From contig JBMORD010000219.1 in the NCBI GenBank assembly GCA_049322495.1, positions 64,001 through 84,562 of the forward strand: a stretch of DNA of 20,562 bases, written 5' to 3'. The DNA is from Myxococcota bacterium. Lineage in GTDB: Bacteria; Myxococcota; Myxococcia; Myxococcales; Myxococcaceae. Numbering within the stretch: the stretch's first letter is position 1; the number at the start of each line of letters is the position of its first letter. Below, one piece after another: positions 5,213 through 9,305 of the stretch. Both the position numbers and the translations under genes were made by a program. Below the pieces are notes generated by a model. The model was given only the letters and a program-made list of their open reading frames with translations. It was not told where the DNA came from and ran no database searches.

Positions 5213-6433
5213 TCAGCCGCCGGCGTACATCGTGATGTCGGTCGCGGCGGCGAAGCTGATCTTGTACGCGTCATCCCAGTTCGGGTGGCGCACCATGAGG
5301 TGCCCGTCGGACAGGAGCGTCTGCTTCCAGTTGCGGCGCATGGTGCCGGGGCGCAGGAGCTTCTCTTCGACGACCCACTTGCCGTAGCGCTCGAGGTAGT
5401 GGCGCAGGCCGGTGATGCGCGTGATGCGGCCCTGCCCGAGGGCGCGCTTGAAGATGATGCCGGTGTTGTACTTGCGCTTCGTCGACGCCTCGAACGAGCG
5501 CCAGCACGCGACGCGGGCCCACTCGCGGAAGAGGTCGATGTCGCCGGTGTAGTTCATCTGGTCGACGAGGTGCGCGCCGCCGGGGCGGCAGCCGATCTCC
5601 CCGAAGACCGCCTCGCCCTTCGCGGTGAGGTACCACTCCATGTGGGTGAAGCCGTCGCCCATCTGGAGCGCCTTGAGCACCTTGCGGCCGAGCGCGATGC
5701 CCGGCTTGAGCTTCGGCTGCTCGAGGTCGCGCACGGTGATGATCACCGGGCTGATCCACTCGTTGGTGCGCGCGATGAGCGGCTTGGGCAGGTAGGCCGC
5801 CACGTTCTCGTACGCGGGCGTCCCGTCGATCGACACGGTGTCGTAGGTGAACTCCTCGCCGTCGATGAACTCCTCGCACGAGGCGACCTCGACGTGGCGC
5901 ATGGCCGCGATGGCGCTCTCGAGCTCCGGCTTGCTGGTGACCTTGAAGGTGTCGGCGCTGCCGGCGCCGGCGATGGGCTTCAAGATGAGCGGGTAGCCGA
6001 TCTTCTCGGCCGCCTCGCGGATCTCCCGCTCGCTCTTCACGCGGAACGAGTGCGGCACGCGCAGCCCGGCGGCCTTCACGCGCTCCTTCATGAGCTGCTT
6101 GTCGCGGAAGCCGGTGACCTGATCGACGGTCATCCCGGGAATGCCGAAGCGCTCGCGCAGCCGCGCGGCGAGGATGACCAGCGGCTCCCAGTTCGCCAGC
6201 ACGCGATCGACGTGCTGCCCGCGCAGCCAGGCGGCGACGCGCTTGATGACGTCGTCCTCGTCCATGATGCGCGGCACCTGCAGGTAGTCGTGGAGGTGCG
6301 GCTTCAGCTCCCGCGGCAGCGCCTGGCGGGGCGAGTCTCCGACGCCGAAGACGTTCGCGCCGACCTCCGCGAGACCACGGGTGTACTGCTGCATCTCCGG
6401 CGGGTACGAGGGCGCGAGGAAGACGACGTTCAT
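5213..6433 (-). CDS. ATP-grasp domain ligase (paralogue of the gene at 13504..14715)
   Basis: ATP-grasp hallmarks are present: central EEFIDGEEFTYD hinge, C-terminal GFTHMEW...GEIGCRPGGA (Mg/ATP-binding region), and a pre-ATP-grasp N-domain (VVFLAPSYPPE...). It is clearly collinear with the second copy (VVFVVPYPAE / EEFLKGREYCFD / GFTHMEW / GEIAARPPGA). Confidence 0.85.
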   Translation of the reverse strand: MNVVFLAPSYPPEMQQYTRGLAEVGANVFGVGDSPRQALPRELKPHLHDYLQVPRIMDEDDVIKRVAAWLRGQHVDRVLANWEPLVILAARLRERFGIPGMTVDQVTGFRDKQLMKERVKAAGLRVPHSFRVKSEREIREAAEKIGYPLILKPIAGAGSADTFKVTSKPELESAIAAMRHVEVASCEEFIDGEEFTYDTVSIDGTPAYENVAAYLPKPLIARTNEWISPVIITVRDLEQPKLKPGIALGRKVLKALQMGDGFTHMEWYLTAKGEAVFGEIGCRPGGAHLVDQMNYTGDIDLFREWARVACWRSFEASTKRKYNTGIIFKRALGQGRITRITGLRHYLERYGKWVVEEKLLRPGTMRRNWKQTLLSDGHLMVRHPNWDDAYKISFAAATDITMYAGG

Positions 6434-6537
6434 GTGGCGACGATTCTACCGGGCGGCCGCGGGCGGGGGCCGCGAATCGGCGTCCCGAGCGGGGAGAACG
6501 TTTCTCGGCGCCGTCATGGCGGTGGTAGAGGCGACGC
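6434..6537. promoter_or_regulatory. divergent promoter region between ATP-grasp gene 1 (-) and M16 peptidase pair (+)
   Basis: On the minus strand TAGAAT ends 9 nt before the ATG of the ATP-grasp gene and there is no SD, suggesting a leaderless or short-leader transcript. A GAGAA-cgt-TTCTC palindrome lies at ~6494-6506. The M16 gene has an AGAGG SD. Confidence 0.35.
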
Positions 6538-7929: not shown

Positions 7930-9305
7930 AGCGCCTCGTCGTCGCGGCCGCGCTCTTCTTCGGGTGCGCGACTCCCCTGCGCGTGAGCGAGGGGCGGGTG
8001 CTGCCTCCGGAGCTGCAGTTCGACCCGACCAGGCTCTCCGTTGGCGCTCCTGCGACGGTGCCCGCGCCTGCGGTGGAGCACCTCGCGCTCCCGAACGGGC
8101 TGCGGGTCTCGTTCGTCGAAGCGCGCGGCGCCGGCCTGGTCGACGTCTCGCTGCTGGTGCGCTGTGGGCGAGTCGACGACGCCCCGGGCGTGCCCGGTGC
8201 GAGCGAGGCGATGCTCTCGCTGGCGTTCTCCGGCGGGGCTGGCGACCTCGATGCCCGGGCGCTCCGCGCGGGCTTCCGGGCGCTGGGGAGCGTGCCCGCG
8301 CTGTCGGTCGACGACGGAGAGATGTGGGCGGCCTCGCTGGTGCTGTCGGAGCACCTCGAGCGCTACCTCGAGCTCGTCGCGCTGGTGCTGCGCGCCCCGC
8401 GCTTCGAGGCGGACGCGGTGCGTGACGAGCTGGAGCGTCGGTCGCGCGCCGTCGAGCTGCCTGCCACGCGTGCGAGCAGCCTCGCCTTCGTGGCGCGTCA
8501 GCGCGCCATCTACGCGGGCAGTCCTCAGCTCGCGCAGTCGGTCAGCAGCGGTGCCCTGGCGAAGCTCTCGCGCGAGCAGCTCGTCGAGCGTGCGAGTCGC
8601 TGCCTCGGCGCGAGCAACGTCGCGCTGGCCGTCTCGGGAGACCTCTCCCGCGCGCAGCTCGAGGCGGCGCTCGCCCCGCTGGCCGCCGTTCCCACCGGCG
8701 CGTCGGTCACGCATCCTCCGGCGCCGTTCGTCGCGCGCGCGCGTTCCGTGACGCTGCAGCCCACCGATGCCGACCAGGTCGACGTGACGCTCGTCGGTCC
8801 CGGCTTGCCCCCCGGCGGAGACCGGAGCGCGGCGAACCTGCTCGCGGAGCTCGTCCGCTCGAGCCTGCAGTGGGAGCTCCGCGACGCGGGCAAGGTCTAC
8901 TCCGTGCGGGTGATGGTCGACGTCGGCCCGGGCGACGGGGCGACGTGGGTGCGCTTCACGACTCGGCGAGAGGTGGCCTTCGAGGCCACGCGCCGCGCCC
9001 TCTCGATGTTCGAGCGCTGGTGGCAGCGCTGGCCGCTGACGACCGAGCTGATCGACAAGGTGAAGAAGCGGCAGTCGCGGAACCTCGAGCCGCCCGAGCG
9101 ACGCGCCTTCGCGCACGCGCGCGCACGCCTGCAGGACCTCGCCATCTTCGACGGAGTGGCCTGGGACGCAGGGCCCCTCGAGGTGAAGGAGCACCAGCTG
9201 CGCGCCTTCTTCGTCCGCGCCTTCAAACCTGTGCAGCTCCAGCTCGTCGTGACCGGGCCGTTCGACCCGGCCAGCCCCTGGCAGACCCTCGCGGCGCCGA
9301 AGTGA
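7926..9305 (+). CDS. M16-like peptidase partner subunit, predicted non-catalytic, lipoprotein
   Basis: The track ORF 7692..9305 has an Arg/Pro-rich N-extension. The real start is the ATG at 7926 (Met 79), which has GGAGGG upstream and forms an ATGA overlap with the upstream stop. Signal peptide MKRLVVAAALFFGC (lipobox). M16 two-domain length, but HxxEH is absent (GASEAMLSLAFSGG at the equivalent position), so it is the inactive partner of an M16B-type heterodimer. Confidence 0.75.
   Translation: MKRLVVAAALFFGCATPLRVSEGRVLPPELQFDPTRLSVGAPATVPAPAVEHLALPNGLRVSFVEARGAGLVDVSLLVRCGRVDDAPGVPGASEAMLSLAFSGGAGDLDARALRAGFRALGSVPALSVDDGEMWAASLVLSEHLERYLELVALVLRAPRFEADAVRDELERRSRAVELPATRASSLAFVARQRAIYAGSPQLAQSVSSGALAKLSREQLVERASRCLGASNVALAVSGDLSRAQLEAALAPLAAVPTGASVTHPPAPFVARARSVTLQPTDADQVDVTLVGPGLPPGGDRSAANLLAELVRSSLQWELRDAGKVYSVRVMVDVGPGDGATWVRFTTRREVAFEATRRALSMFERWWQRWPLTTELIDKVKKRQSRNLEPPERRAFAHARARLQDLAIFDGVAWDAGPLEVKEHQLRAFFVRAFKPVQLQLVVTGPFDPASPWQTLAAPK

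Follow-up and report, generated by a model that had tools for sequence, protein, structure and literature searches.

We analyzed a 20,562-nt stretch of DNA (hereafter the window) from a Myxococcota metagenome-assembled genome (MAG); its G+C content is 72%. The window contains two genes for ATP-grasp proteins: AG1 (5213..6433, minus strand), which encodes a 406-amino-acid protein that resembles L-amino-acid ligases (LALs), and AG2 (13504..14715, plus strand). A 104-nt intergenic region (6434..6537) separates AG1 from two divergently oriented genes for M16 peptidases. The first of these, M16A (6538..7929, plus strand, identified with Pfam), encodes the active subunit (with the motif HLLEH) of a zinc peptidase of the M16B type; the second, M16B (7926..9305, plus strand), encodes an inactive subunit that lacks HxxEH and is a lipoprotein. 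AG2 is followed on the plus strand by a gene for an FGase-family (PF05013) amidohydrolase (14712..15608). Third-position GC analysis and an independent pipeline run on the same DNA (locus L086) gave identical genes. An earlier note, made from this sequence alone, had proposed that all of these genes form a distributed system for ligating and trimming peptides. As described below, the two ATP-grasp genes do seem to belong together, and the M16 pair is probably there by chance.

AG1 and AG2 are collinear paralogues, as the note had recognized. They are 35% identical across 390 collinear residues (E = 7e-70), and the three motif blocks that were said to be common to them occur in both proteins (EEFIDGEE in AG1 and EEFLKGRE in AG2; GFTHMEW in both; and GEIGCRPGGA in AG1 and GEIAARPPGA in AG2). 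By scanning one genome per species, we identified 581 relatives of AG1, and we took the best 80 of the 581 loci along with 10-kb flanks. (Retrieved loci have L-numbers; L086 and L087 are the window's own copies.) The AG1 loci span the Myxococcaceae, Archangiaceae, Anaeromyxobacteraceae, Polyangiaceae, Labilithrix, and Sandaracinaceae, as well as the Kofleriaceae, Haliangiales, Enhygromyxa, and Bradymonadia. We then compared all of the window's proteins to 82 other Myxococcota loci with tblastn; the position of AG2 was informative in 74 of them. AG2 lies directly upstream of AG1, on the opposite strand, in 49 of the 74 informative loci, with a spacer of 21-331 nt (median 75), and eight genomes have the two start codons just 23 nt apart. 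Another 10 informative loci have AG2 within 10 kb of AG1. Because AG1 and AG2 are adjacent in Polyangia-type, Haliangiales, Kofleriaceae, Anaeromyxobacteraceae, Bradymonadia, and Archangiaceae genomes, parsimony suggests that the head-to-head arrangement is ancestral.

The FGase gene also recurs near these genes. In the window, it is joined to AG2 by an ATGA overlap. Its product matches PF05013 with 36.5 bits (the cut-off is 28.9); it has no match to any NCBIfam model, and no match to any sequence in PDB at E <= 0.1. The FGase gene follows AG2 in the Myxococcaceae and Archangiaceae, and it begins 20-30 nt after AG1 in four other loci (L029, L035, L043, and L047, the last two of which are labelled Anaeromyxobacteraceae). 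In L001, it lies a few kilobases from the ATP-grasp pair. The idea that the two ATP-grasp loci are one system, rather than two unrelated loci, is thus supported for AG1 and AG2, which adjoin in 49 of 74 loci, and for the recurrent FGase. However, it does not extend to the M16 genes, which we did not find near AG1 in any of the 82 other loci with tblastn, even with 10-kb flanks.

The M16 genes themselves are much as the note described them, with an ATGA overlap between them and 104 nt (6434-6537) between M16A and AG1. Only M16A has the intact zinc site, in which HLLEH starts at residue 59 and is followed by NANTSKDRTVY at residue 143. The HxxEH and NAxT motifs are both missing from M16B, where the aligned position reads ASEAMLSLAFSG. 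The N-terminus of M16B, MKRLVVAAALFFGC, is a lipobox, and the N-terminus of M16A is hydrophobic and signal-peptide-like. M16A matches both Peptidase_M16 and M16_C from Pfam above their cut-offs; for M16B, M16_C passes (36.2 bits against a cut-off of 23) and Peptidase_M16 is below threshold (20.3 bits against 22.3). The matches of M16A in PDB include 4nnz (E = 9e-22) and 3amj ("zinc peptidase active subunit," E = 2e-14). We therefore predict that M16A and M16B form an exported active/inactive heterodimer of the M16B type. In contrast, AG1, AG2, and the FGase lack signal peptides and AG1 and AG2 look cytoplasmic; the predicted export of the M16 proteins does not match the apparent location of these enzymes, which need ATP. 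Two other features of M16A are worth recording. About 60 extra residues (at about 70-128) separate its HxxEH and NAxT blocks, and the Pfam M16 match falls in two stretches. In addition, the nearest relatives of M16A that we found outside of the myxobacteria are mostly cyanobacterial M16 proteins with 30-34% identity.

Several other searches also separated the M16 pair from AG1. When we compared a profile hidden Markov model of 120 M16A homologues to the six-frame open reading frames (ORFs), only L086, L087, and loci that had been retrieved with M16 as the seed were matched. Two related genomes contain both an M16 pair and AG1, on different contigs: contigs 1 and 45, respectively, in JAUXRX01, and contigs 25 and 48 in CALRPN02. 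So, the linkage that the note proposed does not hold in related genomes. Even the closest relatives of M16A among 5.8 billion proteins are just 41-49% identical. The overlapping M16A-M16B pair is kept in three long contigs (L088, L089, and L090), where its neighbors are unrelated to each other and to those in the window, with no ATP-grasp gene within 10 kb. Scanning metagenomes with M16A did not serve to date the insertion, as it yielded just two loci, both distant. We also considered whether M16A might be PqqF, but the score for TIGR02110 (34.1 bits, E = 1e-8) is far below the cut-off of 320. There are no pqqA-E genes, and no precursor of a ribosomally made, post-translationally modified peptide (RiPP) with a radical-SAM or other maturase, either in the window or around the M16 homologues. 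Judging by this distribution, the M16 pair is a self-contained and apparently mobile module, which seems to have been inserted in this lineage and has no conserved link to AG1.

The M16 genes are part of a larger insert of about 7 kb between AG1 and AG2 (6434-13503). Besides M16A and M16B, it contains genes for a PEBP/YbhB-family protein (9309..9782, minus strand; Pfam PBP, E = 6e-44), a lipoprotein with an IgGFc_binding domain (9815..11527, minus strand; PF17517, E = 1e-78), a PilZ-domain protein (11663..12034, plus strand; E = 2e-17), and a polytopic membrane protein that does not belong to any Pfam family (12038..13402, minus strand). The PEBP, IgGFc_binding, and PilZ genes are absent from the other AG1 loci (tblastn). 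Homologues of the membrane protein (34-39% identity) adjoin AG2 in L004, L005, and L085; this gene is divergent from AG2 in this subclade only. In L085, whose AG1 is 90% identical to that of the window, the interval (4173-9954) contains the same membrane protein followed by GSDH, esterase, and Fic genes. L004 (AG1 89% identical) has a hybrid histidine kinase/response regulator between AG2 and AG1 (5545-10004), and L007 (AG1 86% identical) has nothing between them. The simplest history would be that the ancestral head-to-head pair was opened in one subclade and then received variable cargo, including the M16 pair. As a separate observation, the AG2-AG1 interval of the Myxococcaceae/Archangiaceae subclade holds different genes in each genome, as an insertion hotspot would.

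To the left of this insert, AG1 seems to have kept its own promoter. We aligned the 100 nt upstream of AG1 at the start codon for 78 loci. In 50 of the 78, the pattern TAnnnT, often preceded by TG, starts between -20 and -11; no other 5-nt bin from -100 to -21 has it in more than 2 loci. The window's version is a -10-like hexamer, TAGAAT (6443..6448, minus strand), which lies 9 nt upstream of the ATG of AG1, and across the loci the element is 9-15 nt before the start. TAGAAT is probably the proximal promoter of AG1, and the AG1 mRNA is probably leaderless or nearly so. Leaderless translation of AG1 is probable because some of the spacers between AG2 and AG1 are as short as 23 nt. In other genomes, the start of AG2 occupies this position, 21-331 nt from AG1. 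The note interpreted the 104 nt as a promoter region that is shared with M16A. However, because the -10 element of AG1 is kept in genomes without M16 genes nearby, the region seems to be the ancestral core promoter of AG1 joined to foreign sequence. That is, we interpret it as a junction that was made by insertion and not as a shared promoter that evolved with M16A. The only ORF in the 104-nt gap encodes 23 amino acids and is not rich in Ser, Thr, Lys, Asp, or Glu, and the intergenic gaps beside the window's ATP-grasp genes are just 57-104 nt. An Rfam search did not find any element or riboswitch. A scan of 5100-9800 for promoters and terminators of the Escherichia coli type found nothing either, but it relies on the E. 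coli consensus and missed the AG1 element.

AG1 and AG2 are members of the ATP-grasp superfamily. AG1 passes the cut-offs for four Pfam families: ATPgrasp_N (PF18130, 30.3 bits against 27), Dala_Dala_lig_C (PF07478, 28 against 24), ATP-grasp_3 (PF02655, 28.2 against 23.2), and CPSase_L_D2 (PF02786, 25.1 against 19.8). AG2 passes those for PF02222 (44.7 bits against 27) and PF13535 (27.5 against 27). For the C-terminal domain 2 of LALs (LAL_C2, PF18603), AG2 scores 25.8 bits, which is below the cut-off of 29.4, and AG1 has no match. When we compared both proteins to PDB with phmmer, the top matches of each were the LALs RizA, BL00235, and BacD (for RizA, 4wd3, E = 6e-21 with AG1 and E = 9e-18 with AG2). 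An AlphaFold2 model of AG1 had a predicted local distance difference test (pLDDT) of 88 and a predicted template modelling score (pTM) of 0.85. The first four hits of this model from Foldseek were all LALs (RizA, BL00235, and YwfE/BacD; TM scores of 0.77-0.81), and PurK and PurT came next. Graspetide maturases of the MdnB/MdnC type were not among the sequence matches of AG1 or AG2 in PDB or among the top 50 Foldseek hits of AG1. Thus, both proteins are LAL-like as judged by sequence, and AG1 is LAL-like as judged by its modelled structure as well.

Across 24 aligned sequences of the AG1 family, including AG2, the invariant residues include K152 in the Lys loop, E187/E188 in the EEF block, and E266, E279, and R283 in the HMEW and GEIxxRP blocks. 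On the model of other ATP-grasp enzymes, we take these to be the ATP- or Mg2+-binding and catalytic positions. Because these presumed positions are invariant, both AG1 and AG2 look catalytically active. We also considered housekeeping identities (PurK, PurT, Ddl, AccC, CarB, CphA, RimK, and LysX). All of the NCBIfam scores were far below the cut-offs, so AG1 and AG2 are not known housekeeping enzymes. No other member of the system is as conserved as AG1, which is 70-92% identical across the Myxococcota. More than 7,000 database proteins match AG1, of which the best 120 are 73-100% identical to it; an NCBI protein labelled "Myxococcota bacterium" is 100% identical. The family is narrow, with just 210 cluster representatives at E < 1e-30 among 1.8 billion. 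More distant members of the family (42-50% identity; P0122, P0123, P0124, and P0128) are solitary and lie in unrelated contexts, and they gave no clue to function.

A third paralogue, AG3, is found in a wider locus. By clustering the neighbors of AG1, we identified a recurrent block of genes: an AstE/AspA-like deacylase (in some cases), a GCS2 carboxylate-amine ligase with two CBS domains, a 248-amino-acid PF00756 esterase, a protein of 411-427 amino acids, an enterochelin-esterase-like protein, an S51 peptidase, AG3, and, often, the glycogen synthase gene (glgA). The genes of this block frequently overlap by 4 nt, and the block is convergent with or adjoins the AG2/AG1 pair. Compact examples are L076 (7082-19473), L084 (633-8543), L016 (7814-18467), and L055. 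AG1, AG2, and AG3 are 65-76% identical within groups and 31-34% identical between groups, with AG1 the most constrained, which points to three ancient orthologous groups. L014 (5300-6535, plus strand) and L017 (5543-6763, plus strand) have yet another ATP-grasp paralogue a few kilobases from the pair; it is 37-39% identical to AG2 and is none of AG1, AG2, and AG3. These loci are from an Archangiaceae MAG and from a MAG that is labelled only as Deltaproteobacteria.

The 411-427-amino-acid protein (L084 1357-2601, minus strand, and its orthologues) is highly conserved but does not belong to any Pfam family. Its motifs include FMKPYDGGGW and IDFANPCPDSQVTSLH. When its profile was compared to that of AG1 with hhalign, the two matched in register over the ATP-grasp Lys loop (probability 87%), and its weak matches in PDB are all to ATP-grasp enzymes. 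It is probably a fourth and very divergent ATP-grasp protein. The CBS pair of the GCS2 ligase suggests control by adenine nucleotides. The note had stated that each ATP-grasp gene is flanked by a hydrolase gene. As a general pattern, ligase beside hydrolase holds across the wider locus (AG2 with FGase, AG3 with S51, and GCS2 with AstE/AspA), but M16 is not one of the conserved partners. Our full-text searches of the literature did not find a description of this locus; it may have been catalogued earlier, but the wider locus of paired ligases and hydrolases is apparently undescribed.

The left edge of the window retains part of this block. Positions 1..450 (plus strand) encode the C-terminal CBS pair (Pfam CBS) of a GCS2-type carboxylate-amine ligase that is cut by the window edge. 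This fragment is 50-77% identical to the C-termini of GCS2+CBS proteins of about 600 amino acids from L013, L016, L048, L076, and L085, whose genes are convergent to AG1. Because positions 1-450 correspond to the CBS end of the GCS2 ligase, this genome keeps the genes in their ancestral order, although AG1 now has an insert to its left and another to its right. The GCS2-CBS gene is separated from AG1 by a further 4.7 kb, which contains two genes of no assigned family (from the gene calls), a phosphofructokinase (PFK) gene (3028-4200, minus strand), a gene for an FHA-domain protein directly after it (also minus strand; the two genes together span 3028-4770), and a gene for a small cytochrome-c-like lipoprotein next to AG1. 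PFK and the other genes in this interval are absent from the other loci, and we leave them outside the system. Neither the PFK gene nor the FHA gene was found near AG1 elsewhere; their order recalls the control of PFK by a Ser/Thr kinase in Myxococcus. On the other side of the window, beyond the FGase gene, lie envelope genes and a gene for an extracytoplasmic function (ECF) sigma factor. Between an ExbD homologue and the sigma factor gene is a gene for a 711-amino-acid protein (17626-19761, plus strand) that is rich in Ala, Thr, Ser, Gly, and Asp and has no Pfam family. It includes a tandem repeat array (18442-18819) with 3.5 copies of a 108-nt (36-amino-acid) unit and an 89% match between copies.

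Overall, we consider it likely that AG1 and AG2 are an ancient head-to-head pair of LAL-like genes, which in this genome has been split by about 7 kb of variable cargo, and that the M16 pair is a coincidental neighbor. Some of the data weigh against this reading. AG1 and AG2 are strongly linked, but not everywhere: for 15 of the 74 informative loci, no AG2 was found in the retrieved DNA. An FGase gene was found after or near AG1 or AG2 in only 16 of 82 species, and the M16 pair in none. At the 7-kb insert, we found no tRNA site, no flanking repeats, and no integrase, and we reject a recognizable mobile element as its origin. Also, the chemistry of AG1 and AG2 is inferred only from their family membership and from the neighboring genes. 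Finally, the sequence would be compatible with the functional recruitment of the M16 pair in this lineage. For instance, the pair could be non-ancestral and yet be regulated together with AG1 via the 104-nt region, and it could act on an exported product or in the turnover of the same pathway. Divergent genes that are 104 nt apart can share regulators, and hydrolases do lie beside ligases elsewhere in the wider locus (AG2-FGase, AG3-S51, and GCS2-AstE). We nevertheless view recruitment as very unlikely: AG1 retains its own conserved -10 element 9 nt from the ATG, just as it does where M16 genes are absent; the other genes of the insert (PEBP, IgGFc-binding-like, and PilZ) are functionally miscellaneous; sister genomes have entirely different cargo in the same place; and the compartments of the M16 pair and AG1 do not match.

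The note's own proposal, that AG1, the M16 heterodimer, AG2, and the FGase form one RiPP- or graspetide-like system for ligating and trimming a ribosomal peptide, had been attractive because AG1 and M16A are adjacent and divergent in this genome, and because M16B heterodimers process leader peptides in some pathways. M16A even has a weak match to PqqF (TIGR02110, E = 1e-8). But the 34 bits of this match fall far short of the cut-off (320); the M16 genes are absent from 82 orthologous loci and are unlinked to AG1 in JAUXRX01 and CALRPN02; AG1 and AG2 match ligases of free amino acids, with no graspetide ligase among the matches in PDB or the top 50 from Foldseek; and the gaps by the ATP-grasp genes, of 57-104 nt in the window and as small as 23 nt in other genomes, leave no room for a precursor ORF. 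Furthermore, the M16 proteins are predicted to be exported and the ligases to be cytoplasmic. We consider this proposal to be extremely unlikely. Another possibility is that AG1 and AG2 modify the terminus of a protein or peptide, as do RimK and the peptide ligase PGM1, instead of joining free amino acids. The identity of AG1 across the phylum (70-92%) is higher than that of its partners in the locus, and such constraint would fit a macromolecular substrate; there are also weak matches to the RimK and LysX families. However, those scores are far below the cut-offs, the best matches by sequence and by fold are LALs that form dipeptides, and we did not find a conserved gene for a small carrier or target beside AG1 or AG2 in the loci we compared. 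This seems unlikely, albeit less so than the other alternatives. The adjacency of AG1 and AG2 might also be a mere relic of tandem duplication, without any functional coupling, given that they are paralogous and that duplicates often arise side by side. This too is highly unlikely, as the duplication is older than the radiation of the phylum (31-34% identity between groups, as compared to 65-76% within them), a simple tandem duplication does not yield the head-to-head orientation, and most lineages have nonetheless retained this orientation, with spacers that can be as short as 23 nt. Also, the FGase gene associates with either AG1 or AG2.

If AG1 and AG2 are indeed an ancient pair, then they would be two of three ancient paralogues in an uncharacterized subfamily of amide ligases that have the ATP-grasp fold, are cytoplasmic, and resemble LALs. 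The layout from which the Myxococcota started, and which is still the commonest among them, would have AG1 and AG2 head to head, with promoters that lie beside or overlap the start codons, and often with an FGase gene after one of the two. Each ATP-grasp enzyme would use ATP and Mg2+ to convert a carboxylate to an acyl-phosphate, and would then join this to a substrate that resembles an amino acid, at its amino group. The hydrolases with which the ligases are paired (FGase in this window, and AstE/AspA, S51, or esterases at other places in the locus) come from families whose members split N-acyl-Glu/Asp bonds, peptide bonds of the Asp-X type, or esters, and they might reverse or trim the bonds that the ligases form. 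Together, the ligases and hydrolases could both assemble and break down a small peptide-like metabolite or a short polymer. In this respect, the locus resembles build-and-recycle systems such as cyanophycin synthetase with cyanophycinase more than it does an antibiotic pathway, and the conservation across the phylum points the same way. We tentatively suggest, as a possibility that we would not bet on, that a locus found throughout the Myxococcota, with AG1 and AG2 at its core, makes and recycles a putative peptide-like metabolite or short non-ribosomal polymer, for example a reserve compound or an osmolyte. This locus would comprise three LAL-like ATP-grasp enzymes, a fourth and divergent one, and a GCS2 ligase that is regulated via CBS domains, each beside a hydrolase of the FGase, AstE/AspA, S51, or esterase type, and the transcript of AG1 would be leaderless, as a conserved trait.

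The proposed connection between AG1 and M16 is mostly an accident of adjacency, and setting it aside removes a tempting but false lead toward a RiPP-like system; gene adjacency in a single genome can mislead. What seems to be real is a set of uncharacterized stand-alone ATP-grasp amide ligases with partner hydrolases, whose conservation and layout are unusual. Such a strongly conserved set is of interest in a phylum that is best known for the chemistry of nonribosomal peptide synthetases and polyketide synthases. If the locus does make a common metabolite or reserve polymer of myxobacteria, then it would be a new piece of their core physiology, and it could supply L-amino-acid ligases as well, a class of enzymes that is sought for the enzymatic synthesis of peptides. 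With its conserved -10 element close to the start codon of AG1 and its start codons just 23 nt apart in some genomes, the AG1/AG2 pair might also be a small and convenient case in which to study how high-GC bacteria use leaderless, back-to-back promoters.

Several known systems are similar to parts of this locus. Heterodimeric M16B peptidases, such as Sph2681/Sph2682 from Sphingomonas sp. A1 (PDB 3amj and 3ami), and peptidases of the PqqF/PqqL type have an active HxxEH subunit and an inactive one, encoded by overlapping genes, like M16A and M16B. Unlike those peptidases, M16A has the insert of about 60 residues, M16B is a lipoprotein, and there is no pqq or RiPP context. The window's FGase is in the same Pfam family (above the cut-off) as HutG, an N-formylglutamate amidohydrolase, but the window does not contain any hut genes, and the FGase is translationally coupled to an ATP-grasp ligase instead of to histidine catabolism. 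The maturases of graspetides (microviridins and marinostatin) have the ATP-grasp fold and, like AG1 and AG2, include two cooperating paralogues per locus; however, the AG1/AG2 locus has no precursor gene or space for one, no set of leader peptidase, GNAT, and transporter genes, and no graspetide ligase among its reported matches by sequence or structure.

Cyanophycin synthetase and cyanophycinase are similar to the AG locus in their logic of ligase and hydrolase, in having an ATP-grasp enzyme beside an S51 hydrolase (as for AG3), and in weak matches to the ATP-grasp region of CphA. On the other hand, the CphA models score just 35-39 bits, against cut-offs of 850-877, the AG proteins lack a Mur-ligase-like domain, and the AG locus encodes several separate ligases whereas cyanophycin synthetase is one multidomain enzyme. 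The closest similarity is to the LALs (RizA, 4wd3; BL00235, 3vot; and YwfE/BacD, 3vmm and 3wnz), which are the best matches of both proteins by sequence and of the AG1 model by fold. Like AG1 and AG2, these enzymes have about 400 amino acids (about 470 for BacD), the same multidomain architecture, and a conserved Lys loop, EEF hinge, and HMEW and GEIxxRP blocks. Nevertheless, AG1 and AG2 are only 17-20% identical to them. The known LALs are patchily distributed enzymes of secondary metabolism or of dipeptide antibiotics in Bacillus, while the AG1 family is found across a phylum with 70-92% identity, and the AG proteins form three ancient paralogues with a head-to-head pair at their core.

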